DNA of 64,000 nt, from assembly GCF_044324785.1 (NCBI RefSeq), contig NZ_CP172127.1. One strand, written 5' to 3'. The DNA is from Escherichia coli. GTDB taxonomy: Bacteria; Pseudomonadota; Gammaproteobacteria; Enterobacterales; Enterobacteriaceae. Below are positions 4,654 through 36,338 of this stretch, one piece after another (within the stretch, counting starts at the first letter, position 1; every line of letters starts with the position of its first letter). A model generated the notes under the pieces. That model was not told the origin of the DNA. It did no database searches and worked only from the letters and a program-made list of their open reading frames with translations. A program made the translations under genes and the position numbers.

Positions 4654-5178
4654 ATGAAACGTAAACTTATTGCCTTTGTGATTCTGGCTACATCATCCTG
4701 TGGATATGCAGCCACCAAAGATGTAACAATGAATCTTGTTGATAGTGACGGAAAAGAGCGAAATATTGGTAAAATAACCATCCAGAAGACACCCTACGGG
4801 CTGCTGTTCACCCCTGATCTTCACTCCTTACCCGCCGGCATTCATGGTTTTCATGTACATGAAAACGCAAGTTGTGCTCCTGCCCTGAAAGATGGAAAAA
4901 CTGTCGCTGCTTTATCTGCAGGTGGTCACTTTGACCCGGAAAAAACAGGGAAGCATCTCGGTCCATGGTCTCCTGATGGCCACCTGGGTGATCTCCCTGC
5001 GCTTTATGTCACTCATGACGGAAAAGCAACCTACCCGGTGCTTGCGCCAAGACTATCTGAATTAAAGGAGCTCGATGGCCGTTCGCTAATGCTCCACGCA
5101 GGAGGTGATAATCATGATGACCATCCTGAACCTCTAGGTGGCGGTGGTGCAAGAATTGCCTGTGGTATCATCCCATAA
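4654..5178 (+). CDS. sodC: Periplasmic Cu/Zn superoxide dismutase, accessory SodC paralogue
   Basis: Signal peptide plus Cu/Zn-SOD motifs [49 protein letters not shown]; clearly diverged from the chromosomal K-12 SodC as recalled. Confidence 0.85.
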
Positions 5179-5185
5179 TCAATCA

Positions 5186-5208
5186 GGTAAGGGATATCCT
5201 CCCTTACC
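5186..5208 (+). terminator. Hairpin downstream of sodC (possible intrinsic terminator)
   Basis: GGTAAGGGA-tatcc-TCCCTTACC perfect 9-bp stem just after the sodC stop; weak U-tract. Confidence 0.35.
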
Positions 5209-5306
5209 CTTAATCTTCCCTGGCTGCATGTGCATATCTTTCAGTTACTGTGAGATACCTGTATTACGGTGTCTTTTTAGCTCACAGAAATATCAGACAG
5301 CCCGTT

Positions 5307-16578: not shown

Positions 16579-17541
16579 ATGAAAGAACTTGTGGTCGTTG
16601 CCATTGGTGGCAACAGCATTATCAAAGATAACGCCAGCCAGTCGATTGAGCATCAGGCGGAGGCGGTGAAGGCCGTCGCCGATACGGTTCTGGAAATGCT
16701 GGCTTCCGATTACGACATTGTGCTGACCCACGGCAACGGGCCGCAGGTCGGTCTGGATTTACGCCGCGCGGAGATAGCCCACGAGCGCGAAGGGCTACCC
16801 TTAACGCCGCTGGCGAACTGTGTGGCGGATACGCAAGGCGGCATTGGCTATCTGATCCAGCAGGCGCTGAACAACCGGCTGGCGCCTCTCGGCGAGAAAA
16901 AAGCCGTCACCGTGGTGACTCAGGTGGAAGTGGATAAAAACGATCCGGGGTTTGTCCATCCCACCAAGCCCATCGGTGCATTCTTTAGTGAAAACCAGCG
17001 TGATGAACTACAAAAGGCAAACCCTGACTGGCGTTTTGTTGAAGATGCCGGACGGGGCTATCGCCGCGTGGTCGCCTCGCCGGAACCGAAACGTATTGTC
17101 GAAGCACCTGCCATTAAGACTCTGATCCAGCAAGGCTTTGTGGTGATTGGCGCGGGCGGCGGTGGCATTCCGGTGGTGCGTACTGACGCAGGGGATTACC
17201 AAAGCGTGGACGCGGTTATCGACAAAGATCTCTCTAGCGCGCTACTGGCTCGCGAAATTCACGCCGACATTCTGGTGATCACCACCGGCGTGGAAAAAGT
17301 GAGTATTCATTTTGGGAAACCCAACCAGCATGCACTGGATACAGTGGATGTCCTAACGATGGCCCGTTACATGCAGGAGGGTCACTTCCCGCCTGGGAGT
17401 ATGTTACCGAAGATTCTTGCCAGTCTGGAGTTCCTGGAACGTGGAGGTAAAAGAGTGATTATCACCACGCCTGAATGCCTGTCCGCGGCACTGCGTGGCG
17501 AAACAGGCACCCATATTATCCACTCCCAAGAGGAGACGTAA
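16579..17541 (+). CDS. Carbamate kinase-like protein (YahI/ArcC-like)
   Basis: MKELVVVAIGGNSI...VLTHGNGPQVG matches the carbamate kinase / amino-acid kinase family. Confidence 0.8.
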   Translation: MKELVVVAIGGNSIIKDNASQSIEHQAEAVKAVADTVLEMLASDYDIVLTHGNGPQVGLDLRRAEIAHEREGLPLTPLANCVADTQGGIGYLIQQALNNRLAPLGEKKAVTVVTQVEVDKNDPGFVHPTKPIGAFFSENQRDELQKANPDWRFVEDAGRGYRRVVASPEPKRIVEAPAIKTLIQQGFVVIGAGGGGIPVVRTDAGDYQSVDAVIDKDLSSALLAREIHADILVITTGVEKVSIHFGKPNQHALDTVDVLTMARYMQEGHFPPGSMLPKILASLEFLERGGKRVIITTPECLSAALRGETGTHIIHSQEET

Positions 17542-23827: not shown

Positions 23828-24007
23828 ATTACAATAGCTCTCTGGCTGCCGCCACAATAGCTTGCGCGGTTAACCCGTACTCTCTCTGTAAAAAGTCCTG
23901 AGTTTCAACCTGGCCATACCGCTCTTTAACCCCCACCCGACGCATGGGCACAGGACAAGTTTCTACAAGCACTTCAGCAACTGCTGAACCTAATCCATTA
24001 TGAATAC
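23828..24007 (-). pseudogene. 3' remnant of a transketolase C-terminal-subunit gene, truncated by the IS1-like element
   Basis: Minus-strand translation ...IHNGLGSAVAEVLVETCPVPMRRVGVKERYGQVETQDFLQREYGLTAQAIVAAARELL* resembles transketolase C-terminal domains; the upstream coding sequence is replaced by the IS1-like element at 24008. Confidence 0.5.
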
Positions 24008-24770
24008 GGTAATGACTCCAATTAGTTGAATTAGGAGTATAATAGCCACTTTTAAGGTTCTTTCATGGTCACAGTTAACCTTCATTGCTCCTGTTGCCAG
24101 TCCGTTCAGGTTTACCGTCACGGGAAGAACCCAAAGGACATGATCGATTTCGCTGCCGTGACTGTCATCGAGTGCTTCAGCTCACTTACCGTTACGAGGC
24201 CCGTAAACCGGGAGTTAAAGAGCAAATCACTGAAATGGCTTTCAACGGTGCCGGAGTTCGCGATACTGCCCGTACGCTGAAAATCGGCATTAATACTGTC
24301 ATCCGGACTTTAAAAAACTCTCGCCACGAAGAATAACGTCATACCCGGTCGCTCATGCTGATATGGCACTCATCTGCGAACTTGATGAGCAATGGAGTTT
24401 TGTCGGCAGTAAAGCGCGACAGCACTGGCTCTGGTACACGTACAACACGAAAACTGGTGGCGTTCTGGCCTACACTTTTGGCCTACGGACTGATTAAACC
24501 TGTCGTGAATTGCTGGCGCTGCTTGCCCTTTTACCATCGGTATGTTGACCACTGACGAATGGGGTAGTTACACCAGAGAGTTACCGAAGGAGAAGCATCT
24601 GACTGGTAAGATTTTTACTCAGCGCATTGAGCGCAACATCTACCTCTGAGAACCCGAATCAAACGTCTGGCCCGCAGAACTATCTGTTTCACGCGCTCTG
24701 TAGAACTTCATGAAAAAGTCATCGGTGCCTTTATCGAAAAATATATGTTCTACTAATTGGAGTCACCACC
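24008..24770 (+). mobile_element. Degenerate IS1-family element (divergent from canonical IS1, disrupted reading frames)
   Basis: IS1-like termini GGTAATGACTCCAA ... TTGGAGTCACCACC; InsA-like ...RFRCRDCHRVLQLTYRYEARKPGVKEQITEMAFNGAGVRDTARTLKIGINTVIRTLKN and InsB-like fragments split across frames. Confidence 0.7.
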
Positions 24771-25321
24771 TTCGTTTGTTTAAAGAACCTGCTGGTCCTG
24801 CCATTAATATTACCTGCTGATTGCTTCACATCCGGATTCCTCGCACTGCGCGCGGGTTATTGTTTCGTTTTCGGCCACGGGGTCGCCAGGGCTCTGTTTG
24901 CAGGCCATGATGGCCTGACCTGTACTGTTTCTCAGGCACTGAGATGTCCGTTTACGCCATTTGTTCCCGGATATCCTTAACCTCTGACGTTTGTTCCCTG
25001 CCCCTCTGTCTGATAACGAATACGCTCACAACGCACAGTACTGAACAATACCGACAACAACATGTCTTACATGAAATTCGCTGTAACATCCACCGGAAAA
25101 CATTTTCAGATATCGGATGAGGTACTACTTCCATTGACAGCGCGAGGTAACAAAATTGATGGTAACTCTGACCATTAACCGTAAACCGCAGGGTATTTTC
25201 AGTAAATCACCGGCAACGCCGCTGCAGAATAAAACGGACACAGCATACAAAATGAAGGCCGGTGACCAGATACCACAGTTGAACGATAAACAGAAACCTG
25301 CTGATAAAACACCGTGGCGAC

Positions 25322-25667
25322 ATGACAAAACGCCAGAGCAAAAACCGTAAGCGCATTATTCGTCTTGTGGAACTCTGGCCTGAGTCATTCAACCGGGAAA
25401 AAAACAAAACCACTTAAAGTGGGGATACCTGACGACCTGATACAGGATATCGCCATCCGAGAACTGGCGTTTGGCGCTGGTACATTACATGCAGCAGTGG
25501 CGTCTTATGTGCAGTCTCCGCGCTATTACCGTGCGTTAATAGCAGGTGGCGCCCGTTACAACCTGAACGGTCAGCCGTGCGGGGAAGTGACACCACAGGA
25601 ACAGAAAGAGGCAGAGACCCGTTTAATGATGCTGAATGACCGACGAAAAGACAGAAAACCTCGTTGA
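25322..25667 (+). pseudogene. FinO/ProQ-family RNA-chaperone-like gene interrupted by a frameshift in an A7 tract
   Basis: Frame 1 MTKRQSKNRKRIIRLVELWPESFNREKNKTT* stops at 25415-25417; the +1 frame continues ...KPLKVGIPDDLIQDIAIRELAFGAGTLHAAVASYVQSPRYYRALIAGGARYNLNGQPCGEVTPQE (FinO-like); junction at GGGAAAAAAACAAAACC (25395-25411). Confidence 0.55.
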
Positions 25668-25684
25668 CTGCACAACAGCGCTGT

Positions 25685-26437
25685 TCACTGAGCTGTAATC
25701 AATGTACAGCGCTGTACCGGGCGATGGGTAATACCGGTCACAACCGGTAACCCCAGAGACAATGCAACTGTTTTTAACGCAATATACTGGCCGGATGTAT
25801 CACCCCGGGCAGCCTGAAAACACCTTTCCACCCGGCATTGTCCGTCAGCACTTATCACCCGCCATGTCTGTTGCAATAAATCCACCCGTTGCGAACATTC
25901 TTCATCAACCGTGGCACTGACCCGTGGATGGCAAATGCTCGTCTGGCTGAGCAGCAACAGGCATCGCATTGTTGCTCCTCCATGTTGTTCCCGCAACCAG
26001 CGTAATACCACCGGTGGTGCTGGACTGGCCGTGTGATTACGTTCAGTAATACGCTCGTGCACCTGTCGGTAAAAGGAAGTACAGAATGCATGAATCTGTT
26101 GTCCGTTGATGTTTCCTTCTGCCGAATGGAGTGTGAAGTGGACGGCCAGCAGACGCGGCCAGTGATCCACCGCCTGCTGAATAAAACGCCGGATTTCCAC
26201 CGGCTCTGAAAGTACGGTTTCGGTTATTTGCACGATTTGATCCCCTTGAATGTTGCTGAACCGGTGTCGGTACGCAGGAAAGCACGCCGAGACCGGTACG
26301 ATGCCTGTTACAGCGAAGAACGAGGAATGACAGACGGGGGCAGCAGGTCGCCAGCACCAGGGACAGGGCTGATTTCCACAATACCAACGCTGGTATTTTG
26401 CACATTGCCAGCGTACCGGCATTACAACACGTTTCAT
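25685..26437 (-). CDS. Hypothetical protein, start overlapping the alpA stop
   Basis: ORF with ATGA overlap to alpA; cysteine/tryptophan-rich N-terminus (MKRVVMPVRWQCAKYQRWYCGNQPCPWCW); no family recognised. Confidence 0.4.
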   Translation of the reverse strand: MKRVVMPVRWQCAKYQRWYCGNQPCPWCWRPAAPVCHSSFFAVTGIVPVSACFPAYRHRFSNIQGDQIVQITETVLSEPVEIRRFIQQAVDHWPRLLAVHFTLHSAEGNINGQQIHAFCTSFYRQVHERITERNHTASPAPPVVLRWLREQHGGATMRCLLLLSQTSICHPRVSATVDEECSQRVDLLQQTWRVISADGQCRVERCFQAARGDTSGQYIALKTVALSLGLPVVTGITHRPVQRCTLITAQ

Positions 26438-26670
26438 GCGGCGACTCCCCGTGATGCTTCGATGCGCTGCTGCATCCACTGCTCCACTTCGCTTCTGTAC
26501 CAGCGGCTGCTGCGGCCCAGTTTGATGGGTTTAGGGAAATGGCCTTCACTGATCAGCTTGTAAAACCATTTGTCGGTCATACCAGTGAAGCTGGTGATGT
26601 AGTTCATGTCGATCAGGGGATCGTCGGCACGCAGCAATACGCTGTCGTGACCTGTCATTGAGGTCAACAT
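26434..26670 (-). CDS. alpA: AlpA-family phage/island transcriptional regulator
   Basis: 78 aa; ...LIDMNYITSFTGMTDKWFYKLISEGHFPKPIKLGRSSRWYRSEVEQWM matches the AlpA HTH family. Confidence 0.8.
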   Translation of the reverse strand: MLTSMTGHDSVLLRADDPLIDMNYITSFTGMTDKWFYKLISEGHFPKPIKLGRSSRWYRSEVEQWMQQRIEASRGVAA

Positions 26671-26738
26671 GGTCAGAATGTCCTCTGTGAGATTTATGAA
26701 TGTTGGGCAAATGCGGGTGAATCTGCTGAGCTGAGCTT

Positions 26739-27311
26739 TCAGAGCTGGCCTGCTACGGGATACCAGGGATTACCGGCGAGGTAACGGGCTTCCGGATCGC
26801 GCACACCACGACGATCGCGGGCGAAATCACTGAACGCCCATATCAGCTCTTTGAGTCTCTCTTCGCAGTCCGGTGAACGGGGATCCAGCAGCACATCCCG
26901 GGTAATCTGCTTCTGGTACGGTGCCGCTTCACCCGGTGACGCGAAGCCCAGTACGTTGCTCCAGGCATCCAGAATCAGCCGATCCAGTTCAGGGCCGTCG
27001 AAATATTCCTCCCTGACGCACAGCACCACGTGGTATTCCGGTTTTTCAGGATGACGAGTCAGGAGCCAGCAGAGATCACGTCCGGGGGTTGCATTCATCA
27101 GCGCACTGACGGTTTCGATAAAGGCCATACCGAACCAGGTTTTTCTGTCGCTGAAGATGTTGCCATGTTCCCCCGGCAGACGAAGCAGGATCCGCCGTAT
27201 TCGGGAGCAGGGCTGCTCACGCAGCGCACGCTCAAGGACACCGATAACTTTGCTCTGATAAGATGGCCAGAAGGGCGCCATGCTATAGTCGAAATAAGGG
27301 ATAGCATTCAT
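26739..27311 (-). CDS. YagK/YfjJ-family protein (inovirus Gp2-type), apparently 5'-truncated relative to its paralogue
   Basis: Similar to the 27668..28399 paralogue (YHVVLCVREEYF vs YHVILLLNKDTW); the paralogue's conserved 5' leader motif lies about 160 bp upstream of this gene. Confidence 0.55.
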   Translation of the reverse strand: MNAIPYFDYSMAPFWPSYQSKVIGVLERALREQPCSRIRRILLRLPGEHGNIFSDRKTWFGMAFIETVSALMNATPGRDLCWLLTRHPEKPEYHVVLCVREEYFDGPELDRLILDAWSNVLGFASPGEAAPYQKQITRDVLLDPRSPDCEERLKELIWAFSDFARDRRGVRDPEARYLAGNPWYPVAGQL

Positions 27312-27667
27312 AAGATATGTTCCGTTATACGCAGCCCACAACGCGTCCTGCCCGTGGATGCGCTGACGTGTTATGGCTTGCGTATGGGGTTGATGGAATA
27401 AGTGAAAAACCGCGGCAGAACGGGAAGATCAGGTAACCGACAAGGGACAGAACACCGGATGCAGGTTCAGAATGAATGATCTCCGTTGACTTCGGTTCAC
27501 ATCATTAAGCAGGACAGTAAGGTTTTACCGACGGAGTGTTTCCAGGAGCGAAAGCAGAGAAAAATACCGTTGCATGACTTCAGGACGACTTTTTCAGAAA
27601 ACGAGCTAAGGGCGTCAGCCAACGTCCTGTAGCATAAGCTCAGGCACCGGATGTCGTTTTACAGGGC

Positions 27668-28399
27668 TCACCTGCCATCCAGTAGACGCCCCGGCCCACG
27701 ACTGCAACCATAATTACGTTGCCCGGAACCGTTATGCAACTTCGTTTCATATTTCACGAGATAACTGGCTCTGTTCCGGGCTTTCTGCATCGCTTCCACA
27801 TCACCACGCTTGACCCAGAGCACAGCGGATTCACCCGGCTTTTTGTCTGAAGCCTTCCTGGTATCAGAACATCCACCCGACAAAGGCGTATCATCGGAAG
27901 AAGGGCGAGCATCAGATGATGTCGGTTTACGGAAAGGCGTCCGCCTGGAAAAATGAACCAGTCCATTACCCTGCCAGGGCTCAAGATGCAGAGCACTACA
28001 CCATGCCAGCTTGATCAGTGTCGCCAGCGAAGAAGGAACGGTGAAATCCCCTGGCGAGCACCAGGTATCTTTGTTGAGCAGCAATATCACGTGATAATGT
28101 TTCCTGCCTTTTTCCTTGCCAAACTCCCGGCACCAGAAATAACGCAGAGTGGTTGCACGCACACGCTTGTTGGCACGTCGTTTTTTCCGCTGGTAAGCCT
28201 GAATTTTGGCTTTCAGGGATGCAAAAAAACGAGAAATCACCGCTGAATCCGGATCGGGATCCATGATGGTGACAGGCATATACTCAGGGAAACGTAAATC
28301 CACCCGGATTAACGAGACGGCACGGTGCTGCGCCAGGGCACTGTCGAGAAGGCTGTCAAAACGGGATAACCAGTAAGCATTATGTATTGGTTGATTCAT
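27668..28399 (-). CDS. YagK/YfjJ-family protein (inovirus Gp2-type)
   Basis: 243-aa ORF; RBS GGAG about 10 nt upstream of the ATG; family assignment from recalled CP4-type island proteins. Confidence 0.6.
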   Translation of the reverse strand: MNQPIHNAYWLSRFDSLLDSALAQHRAVSLIRVDLRFPEYMPVTIMDPDPDSAVISRFFASLKAKIQAYQRKKRRANKRVRATTLRYFWCREFGKEKGRKHYHVILLLNKDTWCSPGDFTVPSSLATLIKLAWCSALHLEPWQGNGLVHFSRRTPFRKPTSSDARPSSDDTPLSGGCSDTRKASDKKPGESAVLWVKRGDVEAMQKARNRASYLVKYETKLHNGSGQRNYGCSRGPGRLLDGR

Positions 28400-29319
28400 G
28401 ATGAGAGATCTCCGTTGATTTGGATTGACTTCACATCATTAATCACCGCAGTAAAACTTTACGGCGTCCTGTCATTAAGCAACACCAGTGGCTCCTGATT
28501 AGAACAGAATGAGTTTCCCACGAACAAAAAGACAAACCTACACGCAGGGTAAAAACACGCAACAACAGCATGAATGGATTTGAAAACAATATGGATGACG
28601 AAAAATGTCAAAAGTGAAACGGATCAACAGAACGTGCAAACAAAACGTCAGAAACGCAATCAGAGCACTTTCTGGCGCTGTGAATCAACAACAACACCAA
28701 AACCTACAGCTTAACCACATTACTCAATCACGAATGCGAATGACACGTTTAAAACCTGTTTACAGATAACGCCGTAACACGATCATCCCCATCACCATCA
28801 GAATCGATTTTCTCATCCCGAAAATGTTACGTTTCACTACGCACCATAAAAACGATTAACCATCGATAACGTAAATCTCATCTGAATCAAAAAACCAAAA
28901 CCAATCATCACACTTTCGCAATGCAAGAAGAAAAACCACATCATGACGAAAACAATGACCTTACATGAAAAAGCAAAACGTCAGGAATCGTTAATGCCTC
29001 AATCTGATTGTTATCAAAACATCCAGAAAGTCGTTTAACAGAATCGTCGTAAGCACATCGAAAAGAACGTCAGATCACCTCAGGAAAGTTCGGGTTGATT
29101 TAGCGTAAAGATACTTTTCTCAGCTTAACGTCGAAACACAAACCAAAAACCACAAACAACCAAAGCTCAGGAAAGGTTAAACGTCACATCAGTAAAATCG
29201 AATAGCAGATTGATTGCTTAAACAGAAAGGTTTTACAGCAGCTTTAAACTGATTTTAGCTAACGTAAAGATTTACTAAACTGGATGAGTTTCAGACAAAG
29301 CAATGTGTACAGCAATGCT

Positions 29320-29500
29320 TAATGAAAACACTTATAGGGCTGTTTATGAAAACACGTGTATGTCTGGTAAAACACTTAGTAGAAAATACGTGTATAACAC
29401 TTACTGAAATGCTTAGTAAAAATACTTAGTAAAATATGTGTAGAATTATCTATTTAAAAAGATATGTATATAACACTTAATAAAAACATGTGTATATAGT
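29320..29500 (+). repeat. Cluster of at least 7 degenerate 11-bp direct repeats (AAAA[CT]A[CT][GT]T[AG][TG]); iteron-like
   Basis: aaaacacttat, aaaacacgtgt, aaaacacttag, aaaatacgtgt, aaaatacttag, aaaatatgtgt, aaaacatgtgt within about 180 bp of an ORF-free AT-rich stretch. Confidence 0.6.
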
Positions 29501-30138
29501 ATCATACCGACATTCTCAACATCTTCAGACTTCCATACATACTGGGTGTTGATTTCTCACTTTTACAGCCAGCATGGAGTTTTCTGTCCTAAAAACAGAG
29601 CAGATTTACTCTGGAATTATTTTTCTGCCCCCGTATTTCAGGCCCCAGAAAAGACAATCCGAAGCAAACCGTTTGTCAGCCTCCATATCATCTTTTACCC
29701 CCGGAAAGTGATCGCGTTTTACAACCAGAATGACAGCCATACTGATTATGTCGTCTCCCGGCCCCCTTCACATATAACATGCATGTCTGTCATTGCTTAC
29801 TGCTCCACATGACCGGATTTCACATACAGGATGCACATTCAGTGTTTTTATCGCCACTATAACAGACAGATTACTGTCGTCTTTACTCTTCAGATTGTTA
29901 ATCTGACCACAAGAACAGCCGAACGGCAAAACGCCCTCCACAAGGGGCACATGAACCATAGTTGATAGCATGTTTTTCCTAATCAAGGAATAGTTCAGGA
30001 ATATTTTATTGCATTAATAACTGGCGAATAATCGTTCTGTGAACACAAAATGCTTTTATTTGTAAATTTTATTGCATTGCACTCGTTTTATTGATATGGG
30101 GTTTAATAACAGATAACCCGGAAAGAAGGAGAAAACAG

Positions 30139-30930
30139 ATGACATTACGGATTAACGATCAGGGGCGAGATAAACAGAATCAATTTTTATCGAAAAATGG
30201 AGAAAATCTGAATTCGTTAAAATCGCGTCATGTGCAGGATAGGCATTTACCTGAATGGCTTAAGGATAAAGTTGCAGCATTCTGGTTTTGTCTGGTGATA
30301 AAGGATATGAAAGTGTCAGGGAGCAGTTACTATGAACTTACCATGCAACTTCCCACTTCTGAAGAATCTGTTTGCATCAGTAAGCTGTCATCCTCAACCC
30401 ATGAGATTCGGCTGGAGATCATCAGGCGATGGATTGATAGTGTAGCACAGATAGAAACGGAAGCTTTTACTAAAAATCTCGTTGATGCCATCTATAAAAA
30501 CTGGAAGGAAATCGGGAACAAAAACCAGGCTACATGGCTTAAAAAAAATCCGGAACAACTCGAGTGGGCATGGAAATATATTAACATTCGTATTCCCGAG
30601 TCACATTTAACCTGGTTTTGCCCCGTCAATAACGAAGAGAAACGCATTGCCATCTTAGCATTGCTTAAAATACTGTATCCCGGAGATATACCATGCCAGT
30701 ACAACGACAAAGAGTTTCATGTCGGGATCTGCGCTGAAGAACATTTTTACAGAAGAATGCACGACGCTTTCAGAAAACAGTTTATCGACGGGAAAAAAGA
30801 TAAACGGGTACAAATTAACGTAAAGATATCACCGTCCGCAAAAAGCGCTCTGGACAGACTGACCAGAGCGAGGAAAACAACACAGCAGGCTATTCTGGAA
30901 CAACTGATTCTGAACGGTAGACTGGATTAA
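30139..30930 (+). CDS. Hypothetical protein (263 aa), possible ribbon-helix-helix-like C-terminus
   Basis: RBS AAGGAG 8 nt before the ATG at 30139; no recognisable catalytic motif; C-terminal ...KISPSAKSALDRLTRARKTTQQAILEQLI. Confidence 0.5.
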   Translation: MTLRINDQGRDKQNQFLSKNGENLNSLKSRHVQDRHLPEWLKDKVAAFWFCLVIKDMKVSGSSYYELTMQLPTSEESVCISKLSSSTHEIRLEIIRRWIDSVAQIETEAFTKNLVDAIYKNWKEIGNKNQATWLKKNPEQLEWAWKYINIRIPESHLTWFCPVNNEEKRIAILALLKILYPGDIPCQYNDKEFHVGICAEEHFYRRMHDAFRKQFIDGKKDKRVQINVKISPSAKSALDRLTRARKTTQQAILEQLILNGRLD

Positions 30931-31928
30931 CTTTCACTACTTCCACTCCTGGCAGTTTTCCTCTTTTTGTAGTGTCTCCCGGCTGCAGGCATCAGGTACT
31001 TTTCCGTCATTTCGTTGCAGAACTCTTCAATGTAGTTAATCAGCTTCTGGTGTGCTTTCACCTTTTCTTCCCCGGGGGACGCTTTCAGATAAATGTCCTC
31101 CTTTTCCACAAGTGTATTTATAAACTCTCCCGGACATCCCTGGTTATAAAGCAACGTGAAAAACAACACATTCCCCAGTCTCTCCAGTAACTGCGATTTA
31201 ACCCTGTATTGTTGTTTGCTGAGGATTGATTGTTTTATAAAGCTTAGTCTTGTTAAAAGTTGTTCAAATCCCGGTTCCAGTTTAAAAACAGATTTTAATA
31301 CCAGGGACTGATACTCCTGATAAAAAAGTTCAAACGTCGGGGATGCAGACTGACGAACAGATTTGGCTACAACCCATGGACTAAATCCCATGATTGGGAT
31401 TTCCTTCGCTCCCTCCAGCGCACTCAGAGGTAGTCCAGCAATCCATGCGTCCAGCTTAGCCGAATCAATATCCCCGCTCAAAACCTCATACAAACTGCCC
31501 GTGAACGGTTGAGTCGGTTTTTTTGTTGTTTTACCTTCTGATTGCCTGAATCCATCCACTTTTCTCCGGATATTACGCGGAATCAGCATAAAAGGCGGGA
31601 CATTAAGTGATAAACGTTTACCCGTCATACGATACCAGTGGCCCACCTCAACCTTAATCCGTGTATCTGGCCTTGTATCTGGCCTTGTATCTGGCCTTAG
31701 CTCAAGTGCTATTATGTTAAGCAGGTACAGATAACGCACCGTATAACAGTCAAAATGTTTCTCCGGATCAAACGGCTCTGATCGTTCTCTGCACACAAGT
31801 CCGCTGCGCTTCAGTATTCGCTGGGTATCTTTCCAGGCCTTACTCTGAAGAATGGTGGTAACTCTGGCTTTATTAGCAATCTCACGCAGCGCATCACTTT
31901 GTTGTGCCGTCATCTCTTCCCTCCACAC
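30927..31928 (-). CDS. Hypothetical protein (333 aa) with internal (TRPD)x3 repeat, divergent from the YfjP-like GTPase gene
   Basis: ORF convergent with the previous gene (stop codons overlap); in-frame 12-bp tandem repeat; no family recognised. Confidence 0.5.
   Translation of the reverse strand: MWREEMTAQQSDALREIANKARVTTILQSKAWKDTQRILKRSGLVCRERSEPFDPEKHFDCYTVRYLYLLNIIALELRPDTRPDTRPDTRIKVEVGHWYRMTGKRLSLNVPPFMLIPRNIRRKVDGFRQSEGKTTKKPTQPFTGSLYEVLSGDIDSAKLDAWIAGLPLSALEGAKEIPIMGFSPWVVAKSVRQSASPTFELFYQEYQSLVLKSVFKLEPGFEQLLTRLSFIKQSILSKQQYRVKSQLLERLGNVLFFTLLYNQGCPGEFINTLVEKEDIYLKASPGEEKVKAHQKLINYIEEFCNEMTEKYLMPAAGRHYKKRKTARSGSSES
31663..31698 (+). repeat. 12-bp perfect tandem repeat x3 (GTATCTGGCCTT), in-frame within the 333-aa gene
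   Basis: Three identical units encoding RPDTRPDTRPDTR on the minus strand. Confidence 0.9.
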
Positions 31929-32019
31929 TTTGTCACTCCAGATTTTTTCACGTCCATATTACCTGAATGATAAACCGGATTAGTGTGATCCGGTTCAGCG
32001 AAATCAACAGGATACCGGT

Positions 32020-32904
32020 ATGTCATTCAGCCATTCTTCCCTCTCTGCACAAGTGAAATCATATCTGACGTTTCTTCCTGAAGAAATTCGCCAGAAAATC
32101 CTTGAACATCTCCACGGTGTTATTCATTACGAGCCCGTGATTGGCATTATGGGTAAATCCGGCACAGGCAAAAGCAGCCTGTGTAATGCCATTTTTCAGT
32201 CCCATATCTGCGCCACGCATCCCCTGAACGGCTGCACCCGCCAGGCTCATCACCTCACCCTGCAGATCGGTGAACGCAGAATGACGCTGGTCGATCTGCC
32301 CGGCATTGGTGAGACACCGCAGCATGATCAGGAATACCGGGCACTTTATCATCAGTTGCTACCGGAACTGGATCTGATTATCTGGATCCTGCGGGCTGAT
32401 GAACGTGCGTATGCTGCCGATATTGCCATGCATCAGTTTTTACTGAATGAAGATGCCGATCCCTCGCGTTTTCTGTTTGTTCTCAGCCATGCCGATCGCG
32501 TGTTTCCTGCTGAAGAATGGAACGACACAGAAAAATGCCCGTCCCGTCAGCAGGAACTCTCACTGGCGACAGTAACAGCCCGGGTGGCCACCCTGTTCCC
32601 GTCATCATTTCCGGTACTCTCCGTTGCAGCGCCTGTCGGCTGGAATCTTCAGGCACTGGTGTCACTGATGATCCACGCACTGCCACCACAGGCAACCAGC
32701 GCGGTTTATTCGCATATCCGGAATGAAAAGCGCACTGCGCAGGATCAGCAACACGCACAGCAGGCTTTTGGTGACGCCATCGGCCAGAGTTTTGACGCTG
32801 CCATTGCCCGGTTCAGCTTTCCGGCCTGGATGCTGCAGCTTCTGCGCAAAGCCCGTGATCGCATTATCCGCCTGCTGATCACACTGTGGGATCGCCTGTT
32901 CTGA
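32020..32904 (+). CDS. YfjP/YeeP/YkfA-family GTPase (50S ribosome-binding GTPase domain)
   Basis: P-loop GIMGKSGTGKSSLCNAIF, then DLPGIGE (G3); conserved first gene of the CP4-type island terminal module. Confidence 0.8.
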   Translation: MSFSHSSLSAQVKSYLTFLPEEIRQKILEHLHGVIHYEPVIGIMGKSGTGKSSLCNAIFQSHICATHPLNGCTRQAHHLTLQIGERRMTLVDLPGIGETPQHDQEYRALYHQLLPELDLIIWILRADERAYAADIAMHQFLLNEDADPSRFLFVLSHADRVFPAEEWNDTEKCPSRQQELSLATVTARVATLFPSSFPVLSVAAPVGWNLQALVSLMIHALPPQATSAVYSHIRNEKRTAQDQQHAQQAFGDAIGQSFDAAIARFSFPAWMLQLLRKARDRIIRLLITLWDRLF

Positions 32905-33013
32905 ATGTCCCCGCTTTTTGACCGGCCCCGGCGATAACCAGGAAACGCATTTCCGGTTGCGTCACCACAATGCTGAAGGGCTTCGGTAAACCCTCATTCA
33001 TTTCATCCATCAG

Positions 33014-33044
33014 GCCGCGTCTTCTCCGTGAGACGCGGCTTTTT
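33014..33044 (+). terminator. Intrinsic terminator after the GTPase gene
   Basis: GCCGCGTCT-tctccgtg-AGACGCGGC followed by TTTTTC. Confidence 0.55.
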
Positions 33045-33089
33045 CATTGATTACGTCATTCAGTCTTAACCACTGATAAGGAGCAAAGT

Positions 33090-33908
33090 ATGCGATTAGC
33101 CAGTCGTTTTGGTTATGCGAACCAGATACGCCGTGACCGTCCGCTGACCCGTGAAGAGCTGATGCACCATGTGCCCGGGATTTTCGGGGAAGATAAACAC
33201 ACCTCCCGGAGCCGGAACTATACATACATCCCCACCATCACCGTGCTGGAAAGCCTGCAGCGGGAAGGCTTTCAGCCATTCTTCGCCTGCCAGACCCGCG
33301 TACGTGACCCGGGCCGCCGGGGGTATACCAAACACATGCTGCGTCTGCGCCGTGACGGGGAGATAAACGGACAACATGTCCCTGAAATCATCCTGCTGAA
33401 CTCCCATGACGGTACCTCCAGCTACCAGATGCTGCCGGGTTACTTCAGGTTCGTCTGCCAGAACGGATGCGTCTGCGGTCAGTCTCTGGGGGAAGTGCGT
33501 GTTCCGCACCGGGGAAATGTGGTGGACAGAGTCATTGAAGGGGCTTACGAGGTGGTGGGCGTGTTTGACCGGATAGAGGAGAAGCGTGATGCCATGCAGT
33601 CGCTGGTCCTGCCGCCACCGGCACGCCAGGCGCTGGCACAGGCGGCACTGACTTACCGTTATGGTGACGAACATCAGCCCGTCACCACCGCCGACATTCT
33701 GACACCACGACGCCGGGAGGATTACGGTAAGGACCTGTGGAGTGCTTATCAGACCATCCAGGAGAATATGCTGAAAGGCGGGATTTCCGGTCGCAGTGCA
33801 AAAGGAAAACGTATCCATACCCGGGCCATTCACAGCATTGATACCGATATAAAACTCAACCGCGCATTGTGGGTGATGGCAGAAACGCTGCTGGAGAGCA
33901 TGCGCTGA
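33090..33908 (+). CDS. DUF932-family protein (YfjQ-like)
   Basis: 272 aa; position and size match the YfjQ slot of CP4-type islands; recalled similarity only. Confidence 0.7.
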   Translation: MRLASRFGYANQIRRDRPLTREELMHHVPGIFGEDKHTSRSRNYTYIPTITVLESLQREGFQPFFACQTRVRDPGRRGYTKHMLRLRRDGEINGQHVPEIILLNSHDGTSSYQMLPGYFRFVCQNGCVCGQSLGEVRVPHRGNVVDRVIEGAYEVVGVFDRIEEKRDAMQSLVLPPPARQALAQAALTYRYGDEHQPVTTADILTPRRREDYGKDLWSAYQTIQENMLKGGISGRSAKGKRIHTRAIHSIDTDIKLNRALWVMAETLLESMR

Positions 33909-33999
33909 TGCTGTTTCCCTGAAAGTGCAGCCCTGACTCACGTCTGTACCAGTCCCCAGGCATTCTTCCATTCATTTACTTTTTATAAGGAATCATCTC

Positions 34000-34485
34000 A
34001 TGACAACCTTTTCGCATAGCTCCACCACACCTTCTGTTTCCGTAACTACTGCATCAGGGAATAACCAGTCTCAACTGGTTGCCACTCCCGTCCCTGATGA
34101 ACAGCGCATCAGCTTCTGGCCGCAGCATTTTGGCCTCATTCCACAGTGGGTGACCCTGGAGCCCCGTGTCTTCGGCTGGATGGACCGTCTGTGCGAAGAC
34201 TACTGCGGTGGTATCTGGAATCTGTACACCCTGAACAACGGCGGGGCATTTATGGCCCCCGAACCGGATGATGATGATGACGAAACATGGGTACTGTTCA
34301 ATGCCATGAACGGTAACCGCGCTGAAATGAGCCCGGAAGCCGCCGGCATTGCTGCCTGTCTGATGACGTACAGTCATCACGCCTGCCGTACGGAGTGTTA
34401 TGCCATGACGGTTCATTATTACCGTCTGCGGGATTACGCCCTGCAGCATCCGGAATGCAGCGCCATTATGCGCATCATTGACTGA
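34000..34485 (+). CDS. Antirestriction protein (ArdB/KlcA-like; YfjX/YafX family)
   Basis: 161 aa with acidic stretch PEPDDDDDETW and ...GGIWNLYTLNNGGAFMAPE, typical of KlcA/ArdB-like island proteins. Confidence 0.7.
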   Translation: MTTFSHSSTTPSVSVTTASGNNQSQLVATPVPDEQRISFWPQHFGLIPQWVTLEPRVFGWMDRLCEDYCGGIWNLYTLNNGGAFMAPEPDDDDDETWVLFNAMNGNRAEMSPEAAGIAACLMTYSHHACRTECYAMTVHYYRLRDYALQHPECSAIMRIID

Positions 34486-34500
34486 AAGGGGGCCGGAACA

Positions 34501-34977
34501 ATGCAACAGATTTCCTTTCTGCCCGGAGAAATGACAACCAGAGAGCGCAGCCTCATTCAGCGGGCCCTGAAAGCCCTGGACCGCCATCTTCATGAACCCG
34601 GCGTGGCCTTCACCTCCACCCGTGCGGCACGGGAATGGCTGATTCTGAACATGGCGGGACTGGAGCGTGAAGAATTCCGGGTGCTGTATCTGAACAACCA
34701 GAATCAGCTGATTGCCGGTGAAACCCTCTTCACCGGCACCATCAACCGCACGGAAGTCCATCCCCGGGAAGTGATTAAACGCGCCCTGTACCACAATGCC
34801 GCTGCCGTGGTGCTGGCACACAATCACCCGTCCGGTGAAGTCACACCCAGTAAGGCAGACCGCCTTATTACGGAACGTCTGGTACAGGCACTGGCCCTGG
34901 TGGATATCCGGGTGCCGGACCATCTGATAGTCGGTGGCAGCCAGGTTTTCTCCTTTGCCGAACATGGTCTGCTTTAA
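34501..34977 (+). CDS. RadC-like JAB/MPN-domain protein (YeeS/YfjY/YkfG family)
   Basis: JAMM motif HNHPSGEVTPSKADRLITERL; 158 aa. Confidence 0.85.
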   Translation: MQQISFLPGEMTTRERSLIQRALKALDRHLHEPGVAFTSTRAAREWLILNMAGLEREEFRVLYLNNQNQLIAGETLFTGTINRTEVHPREVIKRALYHNAAAVVLAHNHPSGEVTPSKADRLITERLVQALALVDIRVPDHLIVGGSQVFSFAEHGLL

Positions 34978-35039
34978 CCCGTCACAACCACATCACACCT
35001 GTTTTCACTTTTATCTTCTGTCTTCAGAGGTATCCCATT

Positions 35040-35261
35040 ATGAAAATCATCACCCGTGGTGAAGCCATGCGTATTCACCAACAGCATCCTGCATCCCGTC
35101 TTTTTCCGTTCTGTACCGGCAAATACCGCTGGCACGGTGGCACTGAAGCGTATACCGGTCGTGAAGTGCAGGATATTCCCGGTGTGCTGGCCGTGTTTGC
35201 AGAACGCCGTAAGGACAGTTTTGGTCCGTATGTCCGGCTGATGAGCGTCACCCTGAACTGA
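35040..35261 (+). CDS. DUF987-family small protein (YeeT/YkfH/YpjJ-like)
   Basis: 73 aa; conserved slot between the radC-like gene and the TA pair. Confidence 0.6.
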   Translation: MKIITRGEAMRIHQQHPASRLFPFCTGKYRWHGGTEAYTGREVQDIPGVLAVFAERRKDSFGPYVRLMSVTLN

Positions 35262-35275
35262 GTCAGGGCATTCTG

Positions 35276-35920
35276 ATGAGCAGAATTATCACCATCACAG
35301 TGTATACGCTGGATGAACTTTCCTGCCCGGCACGGGAAAAAGCCCGCGACGGGTACCGTCAGCATCATGCTGACAGCAGCTGGTATGAAAACGTGTATGA
35401 GGACTTCAGGGCGGTCTGTGACATTGTCGGGATTGCCCTCCGCCAGCGAGTTATCCGGCTCAGCAGCGGCAGGTTTATGGAAGAGCCGTGCATCTGGTTC
35501 AGCGGCTTCAGCAGCCAGGGGGACGGAGCCTGTTTTGACGGGCGCTGGCACTGGCAGCCGGCAACAGCCAGGAAAATCCGGGAATATGCCCCGCAGGACC
35601 GTGAGCTTCATCGTATCGCGGATGCCCTGCAGGCGGTGCAGAAGCGTAACTTCCGGCAGCTTCAGGCTGAAATCCGCCACCGGGGACGCTACTGCCATCC
35701 GTACAGCATGGATATCACCGTCACCCGGGACAGTCCGACTGGTCAGGCTATGACAGCCGATGCGGAAGCCGCTGTCAGCGAAGCCCTGCGCGACCTGGCC
35801 TTCTGGCTGTACCGTCAACTGGAAAACGAGTACGACCAGATGACCTCAGACGCCGCTGTGGATGAGGCCATTCTCATCAATGCATACATCTTCACCGAAA
35901 CCGGTCAGCGCACCGGCTGA
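35276..35920 (+). CDS. Hypothetical protein (214 aa) in the variable slot between the DUF987 gene and cbeA
   Basis: ORF with consistent coding composition; no motif recognised; the overlapping antisense ORF 35075..35818 is rejected. Confidence 0.5.
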   Translation: MSRIITITVYTLDELSCPAREKARDGYRQHHADSSWYENVYEDFRAVCDIVGIALRQRVIRLSSGRFMEEPCIWFSGFSSQGDGACFDGRWHWQPATARKIREYAPQDRELHRIADALQAVQKRNFRQLQAEIRHRGRYCHPYSMDITVTRDSPTGQAMTADAEAAVSEALRDLAFWLYRQLENEYDQMTSDAAVDEAILINAYIFTETGQRTG

Positions 35921-35969
35921 CCTGTCATCGTTAAACCATTCTTAACCACTTTTCAGAGAGGATTTTATC

Positions 35970-36338
35970 GTGTCAGACACACTCTCCGGGATAACTCATC
36001 CCGACGACAATCACGACCGCCCCTGGTGGGGGCTTCCCTGCACAGTGAGGCCCTGTTTTGGCGCCCGTCTGGTGCAGGAGGGTAACCGGTTGCATTACCT
36101 TGCCGACCGCGCCGGCATCAGAGGCCGGTTCAGCGATGCGGATGCATACCATCTGGACCAGGCCTTTCCGCTGCTGATGAAACAACTGGAACTCATGCTC
36201 ACCAGCGGTGAACTGAATCCCCGCCATCAGCATACCGTCACGCTGTATGCAAAAGGGCTGACCTGCGAAGCCGACACCCTCGGCAGTTGTGGTTACGTTT
36301 ATCTGGCTGTTTATCCGACGCCCGAAACGAAAAAGTAA
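35970..36338 (+). CDS. cbeA: CbeA/YeeU/YfjZ-family type IV antitoxin
   Basis: MSDTLSGITHPDDNHDRPWWGLPCTVRPCFGARLVQEGNRLHYLADRAGIRGRF...YVYLAVYPTPE matches the family. Confidence 0.8.
   Translation: MSDTLSGITHPDDNHDRPWWGLPCTVRPCFGARLVQEGNRLHYLADRAGIRGRFSDADAYHLDQAFPLLMKQLELMLTSGELNPRHQHTVTLYAKGLTCEADTLGSCGYVYLAVYPTPETKK

Follow-up and report, generated by a model that had tools for sequence, protein, structure and literature searches.

A direct-repeat array abutting a conserved core beside HUH-endonuclease-like YagK/YfjJ genes of Escherichia coli islands: a putative origin-like site

HUH initiators typically recognise short direct repeats near a conserved nick sequence, examples being the Rep-binding element of adeno-associated virus (AAV), the ACCA repeats of NS1 from minute virus of mice, the iterons of geminiviruses and the 11-bp direct repeats of RepB. 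In the double-strand origin (dso) of pMV158, a conserved nic locus is combined with 11-bp direct repeats, the bind locus, 84 bp away, and the origins of parvoviruses and AAV carry tetranucleotide repeats beside the nick. Here we describe an array of degenerate direct repeats that ends at a short conserved core in a stretch of 64,000 nucleotides from Escherichia coli (NCBI RefSeq assembly GCF_044324785.1, contig NZ_CP172127.1), called the window below and numbered from its first letter. Array and core lie upstream of a gene of the YagK/YfjJ family, named after genes of the K-12 y-ome that lie in the cryptic prophages CP4-6 and CP4-57; many pathogenicity islands have members of this family. Of the two, the conserved core that is tied to the YagK/YfjJ genes is the more valuable result. 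The features on which the argument rests are the following:

27668-28399, minus strand: YagK/YfjJ gene ('inovirus Gp2 family'), 243 aa, HUH-endonuclease-like
29303-29494, plus strand: repeat array, 13 degenerate direct repeats of type A (AYRCTTA) and type B (AYRTGTA)
29436-29487, plus strand: 52-bp stretch, extra in the window and near-identical strains and missing from most homologous spacers
29494-29512, plus strand: conserved core, consisting of A-TATAGT (hexamer at 29495-29500), ATCATAC and CGACA (29508-29512)
29609-29619, plus strand: box 2, CTCTGGAATTA, with the family consensus (A)CTCTNNARTTA, 96 nt after the core

The core follows the consensus TATAWT, 6-9 nt (commonly A(A/C)(C/T)(A/T)A(T/A/C)C), C(G/A)ACA, with TATAWT-N7-CGACA as the typical form; the window holds one copy, which reads TATAGTATCATACC. 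In a comparison set of 84 loci, made up of relatives of the YagK/YfjJ gene with their flanks, we looked for this sequence up to 1.3 kb upstream of the gene. It was found there in 46 of the 84 loci in divergent orientation to the YagK/YfjJ-family gene and in gene orientation in only five, and the linkage between core and gene is therefore orientation-specific. Genera with the core include Tatumella, Rosenbergiella, Limnobaculum, Budvicia, Dickeya, Pectobacterium and Providencia as well as Proteus, Morganella, Yokenella, Aeromonas, Rheinheimera, Marinomonas and Aliivibrio, all Gammaproteobacteria. K-12 has a core in the yagK-yagL spacer (NC_000913, ~293129; locus L008 of the set, 5130-5210) and a decayed copy at yfjJ; neither CP4-57 nor CP4-6 of K-12 holds a homologue of the window's spacer or array. 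Sequence beyond the core varies: K-12 has the convergent yagL there, loci of the Dickeya type the 3' end of yfjI, and the window cargo genes. Because the core is constant whatever lies beyond it, we assign it to the HUH gene and not to a downstream operon. Box 2 lies 52-115 nt past the core in ~40 loci and in the window forms the 3' half of a weak terminator-like hairpin (29596-29613). A second box-2-like match at 17423, inside a coding region without a nearby core, was put down to chance. When viral contigs were searched with one 18-mer variant of the core, three matched; two of these matches stand beside Gp2-like, YfjI-like and AlpA-sized genes, and the third may be due to chance. Our literature search found no description of a TATAWT-N7-CGACA ... 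CTCTNNARTTA element.

There is no conserved -35 element in either orientation, and no conserved RNA fold was found, so that what is conserved is the primary DNA sequence. The RNA downstream of the core folds no better than shuffled sequences (z -0.56), an alignment fold of nine sequences (alifold) reached -1.4 kcal/mol with one compensatory pair, and an Rfam search of 24000-36000 in E-value mode returned no relevant RNA family. A structured small RNA or leader was ruled out on these grounds, namely folds no better than shuffles and no covariation. A conserved small open reading frame (ORF) over box 2 (29574-29711) was likewise discarded after alignment reading, as its frame is lost between E. 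coli variants.

The array itself is larger than the at least seven copies that a sequence-only reading of the window had reported. Its 13 units start on the plus strand at 29303, 29315, 29328, 29354, 29372, 29388, 29397, 29409, 29422, 29436, 29462, 29473 and 29488, all in a single orientation and the majority preceded by an A-run. Type A corresponds to (A)AAAYRCTTAG/C and type B to AAAAYAYGTGTAT; the types alternate roughly, and the conserved unit core measures 7 bp, or 11-13 bp with the A-run. The 7-mer AYR(CT/TG)TA matches 13 times on the plus strand and not once on the minus strand of 29303-29494, compared with 36 plus-strand and 17 minus-strand matches across the entire window and at most 2-3 in each of its other 200-bp stretches. 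In 2000 dinucleotide-preserving shuffles of 29300-29500 the mean was 0.87 matches and the maximum five; the 7-mer was derived from the array itself, which makes this test post hoc, but the margin is nonetheless very large. The extent first proposed, 29320-29500, holds in the main, although the array starts ~17 bp further left and ends at 29494, where it directly abuts the TATAGT hexamer. The repeats are indeed direct, but a regular 11-bp period is not seen: start-to-start spacing ranges from 9 to 26 bp, mostly 12-14 bp, and is neither a regular 11 bp nor 22 bp. A repeat finder returned families of 19-27-nt repeats within the array region, and Tandem Repeats Finder reported 5.2 copies with a period of 13 at 29369-29434. 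The non-coding, AT-rich setting is as described before, with a GC content of 0.27 for the array region and no ORF of at least 40 aa overlapping 28770-29545. Phased A-tracts and curvature were ruled out from the unit coordinates, the A-runs being irregularly spaced.

The repeats are conserved in related islands. All 13 E. coli variants examined keep the array on the same strand, with 3-13 units and a distance of 106-211 bp from the left anchor to the hexamer, and in all 13 the final B unit abuts TATAGT. The window and its near-identical strains have the longest version owing to the extra 52 bp, which contribute 3-4 units and a short palindrome, TATCTATTTAAAAAGATA, and whose borders are ambiguous since they fall inside the repeated ATGTGTA. 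The flanks of the array, notably TATAGTATCATACCGACATTCTCAACATCTTCAGAC, are conserved at least as well as the array. Across lineages we compared a 9-mer repeat score upstream of the core with that of shuffled sequences. Significant direct repeats were found only in some lineages, namely E. coli, Providencia heimbachae, Hafnia alvei, Yokenella and Budvicia; most lineages have the core with no significant array by this score. The units of P. heimbachae are of the AAACACATAGA type, with an AAAACAC half similar to that of the window. H. alvei has the 19-mer TTTAAGTAACTCATCATTA in four copies ~30 bp apart, and in Budvicia aquatica the 8-mer TACAGTAT is repeated in tandem at least nine times, right up to the TATATT of the core (locus L032, 3550-3690, minus strand). 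In the Dickeya-type group an inverted repeat of 11-13 bp, CAGTCATCGCA, flanks the core, and inverted repeats in this position were significant in that group only. Different, lineage-specific repeats at a fixed place are what one would expect of specificity determinants, bound by a protein that the element encodes and that diverges fast, and they are hard to explain by a host factor. Separately, Brenneria corticis has four AAAATGTGTY repeats like the B units of the window (locus L009, 5290-5390, minus strand). An unrelated 323-aa gene follows them immediately, and they lie ~450 bp past the core instead of before it. The genes downstream of the Brenneria spacer and of the window's spacer show no homology.

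The relation of the YfjJ/YagK family to phage replication initiators, which the sequence-only reading had put forward, is borne out by profile matches, motifs and predicted fold. The 243-aa protein matches the Pfam families YagK_YfjJ_C (E 1e-35) and, above the gathering cut-off, REP_ORF2-G2P (PF23343, 'replication-associated protein ORF2/G2P'; E 5e-10), a family of replication initiators. It carries the motifs RVDLRxP, HYH (H101/H103) and R..YL.K..TK (Y213); RVDLxxP, H-x-H and R..YL.K..TK are invariant in relatives from Brenneria, Providencia and Limnobaculum and in YfjJ and YagK of K-12 (34-51% identity), and in an alignment of 14 diverse relatives H101, H103, Y213 and K216 do not vary. These three motifs are probably the counterparts of the three motifs of rolling-circle Rep proteins. 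The predicted fold matches HUH origin-binding nickases, that is NS1, Rep, RepB and RAYT nucleases; a sequence search of the PDB using the family profile gave no match. Motifs and fold prediction together indicate that the neighbouring gene encodes an HUH-like endonuclease. The E. coli 243-aa version contains a Ser/Pro/Lys-rich insertion of ~45 aa at residues ~150-190 that occurs in no other family member; it is predicted with a local confidence score (pLDDT) below 50, and numerous database copies are frameshifted inside this segment. About 160 nt upstream of the gene start there is a terminator-like hairpin on the minus strand (28556-28572), through which transcription of the HUH gene from the core would have to read.

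We tentatively favour, as quite possible if somewhat short of probable, a reading in which the array consists of lineage-specific protein-binding repeats of a putative HUH recognition and nick site, origin-like in nature, that overlaps a divergent promoter. The repeats with their conservation and varying copy number, the HUH nature of the neighbouring protein and the orientation-specific linkage of core and gene are observed; from these we infer the identity of the binder, nicking, and replication or transfer. The island-encoded HUH protein would bind the double-stranded repeats ending at the core and thereby be loaded onto the easily melted TATAGT-ATCATAC-CGACA. Its HUH/Tyr active site would nick one strand there, with TATAGTATCATACCGACA as the putative target, and from this nick rolling-circle-type replication, or else strand transfer, of the excised island would set out. 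Transcription would be regulated by the same binding, the core also being a -10-like element of the divergent promoter region. PICMI satellites, related elements with an int-alpA-DUF3987 backbone, excise and replicate as concatemers. A more far-reaching version, in which the YagK/YfjJ proteins are active HUH nickases that have the conserved element and its lineage-specific repeats as their origin, hence a new family of rolling-circle replication or transfer origins, seems to us rather doubtful. A candidate for an alternative binder of the repeats, less likely than the HUH protein, is the product of a further gene:

26434-26670, minus strand: AlpA-family gene (excisionase/regulator), PF05930, in the same leftward gene group

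In relatives, too, an AlpA gene follows the Gp2-like gene. The binding element of the Pseudomonas aeruginosa AlpA antiterminator was considered as a model for the core and rejected, because the contact residues of that AlpA are numbered up to 142 and its fold is 21Q-like, whereas the AlpA-family protein of the window has 78 aa.

Several observations weigh against a recognition and nick site. As most relatives have the core without a significant array, the repeats are accessory and dispensable for the role of the core. Frameshifts or stops are common among copies of the gene, and the copy number of the array is fluid, which suggests weak selection. The unit spacing of ~12-14 bp is not helical-phase. 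Single-stranded DNA of 29470-29640 (z -1.1) and of the array (z -0.13) folds no better than shuffled sequence, so that there is no hairpin-type nick site here; to our knowledge, such a hairpin is not universal for HUH systems, phiX174 and AAV being without one. The module was found as a replicon in none of 72,556 plasmid and 50,697 phage records, and the plasmid matches that were inspected are island fragments or misassigned contigs. Two records with the gene were set aside individually: a small 'plasmid', which is a linear contig with an integrase and chromosomal-type genes and apparently misassigned, and a 4.5-kb 'phage', which is an unverified low-coverage contig. Finally, as a sigma-70 -10 element the hexamer of the core is perfect, and the homologous yagK/yagL spacer of K-12 is a reported binding site of RNA polymerase and H-NS.

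On this last point a role in transcription fits no less well. It leads to the view that the locus is a purely transcriptional control region, a possible but doubtful explanation in which TATAWT would be the -10 element of a -35-less promoter for the YagK/YfjJ-alpA group or for a divergent transcript. The repeats would then be operator or activator sites, for example of an AlpA/Xis-type protein, or an H-NS nucleation tract that silences the island. AlpA/Xis-type proteins typically bind head-to-tail repeats, and AlpA genes are always adjacent; the array has only 27% GC, and box 2 coincides with a terminator-like hairpin. The -10 hexamer is perfect or near-perfect in ~40 loci and matches at 5-6 of six positions in all of them; AT-rich and nearly palindromic, it reads as -10 on both strands and could serve the gene. 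Shimada et al. (PMC3946193) found the yagK/yagL spacer as a site of RpoD holoenzyme in genomic SELEX, together with H-NS, and predicted the promoter TTTAGA-16-TATAAT, which we place, from the sequence, on the strand of yagK, where it overlaps the core. However, a -35 element is not conserved (on average 2.6 of six positions in core orientation and 2.9 in gene orientation), there is no TGn extended -10, and a sigma-70 consensus scan returned only TTAATA-17-TATCAT with 9 of 12 positions. The 12 bp past the hexamer match it in conservation, something that plain promoters do not usually show. The sequence downstream in the direction of the core is unconserved and sometimes contains a convergent gene. 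Nor does the locus offer a conserved RNA structure or a stable frame over box 2, and a host factor such as H-NS would leave the lineage-specific repeat sequences unexplained.

The changes in copy number could also mean that the array is a functionless by-product, formed by local duplication and slippage of the AT-rich DNA that adjoins the core, in an island that is decaying and silenced, and kept by descent rather than selection. We regard this as unlikely. It would account for 3-13 units among close relatives, for the extra 52 bp of the window as a lineage-specific gain, for the plain 8-bp microsatellite that Budvicia has at the equivalent position and for the resemblance of the B units to the hexamer-overlapping sequence ATGTGTATATAGT, as expected from duplication of the edge of the core; broken gene copies and an island without visible integrase in this strain fit as well. 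But the units are separated by non-repeated spacers and belong to two alternating types rather than being identical head-to-tail copies, and strand polarity and 7-mer consensus are kept across variants whose spacers are 72-94% identical. Moreover, P. heimbachae, with a protein of 39% identity, has a similar AAAACAC-type array at the equivalent position while the remaining spacer cannot be aligned, and the Hafnia 19-mers, ~30 bp apart, look like binding sites. The iteron-like character claimed for the array stands in the sense of HUH and rolling-circle systems but not in the classical theta sense, and an origin with iterons for a plasmid-type Rep plus DnaA is very unlikely. Four B units, read on the minus strand within 100 bp, do match the DnaA box TTWTNCACA at 8 of 9 positions, and the setting is AT-rich. 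A motif scan of the array, however, yielded no exact DnaA box, no IHF consensus and no GATC, hence no GATC cluster; the units are short and irregularly spaced where 17-22-bp iterons at ~22-bp spacing would be expected; the Pfam matches of eight neighbouring proteins and the nearby annotation include no Rep_3, RepA or pi-type gene and no winged-helix Rep; and the module was not found on autonomous plasmids.

The array sits in an ORF-free spacer of 1.7 kb (28400-30090), one block of which is conserved between divergent E. coli islands:

28877-29637, plus strand: conserved spacer block, 73% identical to strain cq9, containing an A/C-rich stretch, the array, the core and box 2

Other islands have different sequence in place of ~28577-28876. 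Segment 29150-29650 of the spacer occurs in 1,864 of 5,426 complete E. coli genomes with 72-100% identity, almost always on the chromosome, and the order of Gp2-family gene, spacer, variable genes and GTPase is constant. Between 28500 and 29300 the plus strand has far more A than T (AT skew up to +0.51) and more C than G (GC skew down to -0.45), with CA-rich low-complexity runs such as AAAACCAAAACCAATCATCACAC; in other islands a 176-aa ORF (locus L004, 2075-2605) replaces part of it. A gene in decay, or a tract resembling those for Rho utilisation, could account for this asymmetry.

Neighbouring genes were named after the annotation of a near-identical E. coli strain. Left of the spacer is the leftward gene annotated as 'inovirus Gp2 family protein' (27668-28399), followed further left by a 200-aa hypothetical gene, the AlpA-family gene, a second gene with a YagK/YfjJ domain, a broken ProQ/FinO gene and insertion sequence elements. 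The alpA homologue is thus flanked by the 'YagK/YfjJ domain-containing' gene (25685-26479, minus strand) and the 200-aa hypothetical gene (26739-27341, minus strand), and the longest-ORF translations of these two gave no Pfam match at E 0.01. To the right there are two hypothetical genes and then a YeeP-like GTPase, DUF932, an antirestriction protein, RadC, DUF987, CbeA/CbtA and DUF4942, ending at frlR. The core accordingly stands between the leftward HUH gene and rightward GTPase, DUF932, antirestriction, RadC and toxin-antitoxin genes. With this layout in view, a conjugative oriT followed by a leading region rich in anti-defence genes was considered, but the genes in question point away from the site. 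In K-12 CP4-57 the equivalent position is occupied by abpAB and rnlAB, which serve defence, and we therefore consider the interval right of the spacer a cargo hotspot. In the window this variable interval holds two overlapping convergent hypothetical genes, 30139-30930 (plus strand) and 30927-31928 (minus strand), which are possibly a novel cargo or defence pair; they have no match in Pfam, NCBIfam or PADLOC, and the latter encodes a PDTR tandem peptide repeat. In PADLOC, the YeeP-like GTPase (32020-32904, plus strand) weakly matches LeoBC with its C-terminal part (E 4e-7). No integrase was seen in the 25 kb that the annotation covers, so that this copy looks truncated and the site may be vestigial in this strain.

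Islands of this type occur in about one third of complete E. coli genomes, and their cargo comprises virulence, defence and toxin-antitoxin genes. Their two ends are int-alpA-(yfjI)-yfjJ on one side and YeeP, DUF932, antirestriction, RadC and CbtA/CbeA on the other. An HUH fold with a linked cis-element and an attached array turns the annotation as 'cryptic prophage' into a testable hypothesis that names a protein, an 18-bp target and strands. If the locus were an origin, this would explain how islands of the P4-integrase type are amplified or moved after excision; if it is not, the element is still a deeply conserved promoter or operator module of these islands.

Among known systems, iteron-containing theta origins such as the oriV of PIME and the ori of SaPI/PICI share with the site direct repeats in AT-rich non-coding DNA, replication-type genes and an AlpA-encoding integrative element. 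They differ in that a RepA or Pri-Rep gene and a DnaA box are missing from the window's site, and in unit length and spacing, which are atypical here; PIME integrative mobilizable elements (repA, traJ, trbJ/L, iteron oriV) as such were ruled out by their different gene content. We found no link between this island type and the 'iOriT' preprint. The Pfam and NCBI family names refer to inovirus Gp2, and the Ff (f1/M13) origin resembles the site in being intergenic, upstream of gene II and equipped with an AT-rich enhancer. Nevertheless, the proteins here have ~200-243 aa compared with 410 aa for the gene II protein, the origin sequences cannot be aligned, and the inovirus genomes in the phage collection gave no match. 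NS1 of parvoviruses and Rep of AAV differ by a fused superfamily 3 (SF3) helicase that is absent here and share only 9-16% sequence identity; a separate DUF3987 'primase' gene is present in many islands of the family, though not visibly in this one.

The layout matches that of geminivirus and other CRESS-DNA virus origins, where the Rep gene is divergent from a conserved sequence with lineage-specific iterons between them and an overlapping promoter; the viral iterons are placed between the TATA box of the Rep promoter and the conserved nonanucleotide. HUH Rep folds are among the predicted-fold matches of the protein. A large number of core variants have the form TAT(A/T)TTAC(C), which brings to mind the geminivirus nonanucleotide NANTATTAC; the core of the window does not fit this nonanucleotide. 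In contrast to geminiviruses, there is no GC-rich stem-loop, and the hosts are bacteria with the site in an island context. Compared with the dso of RepB from the pMV158 family, the putative nick site is not surrounded by a hairpin, and there are more repeats, which are degenerate and spaced irregularly. The element is integrated in the chromosome and is not an autonomous plasmid, and the protein belongs to different Pfam families (PF11726/PF23343). By analogy with the bind locus of pMV158 and with geminivirus iterons, one and the same binding event at the array would also regulate transcription.

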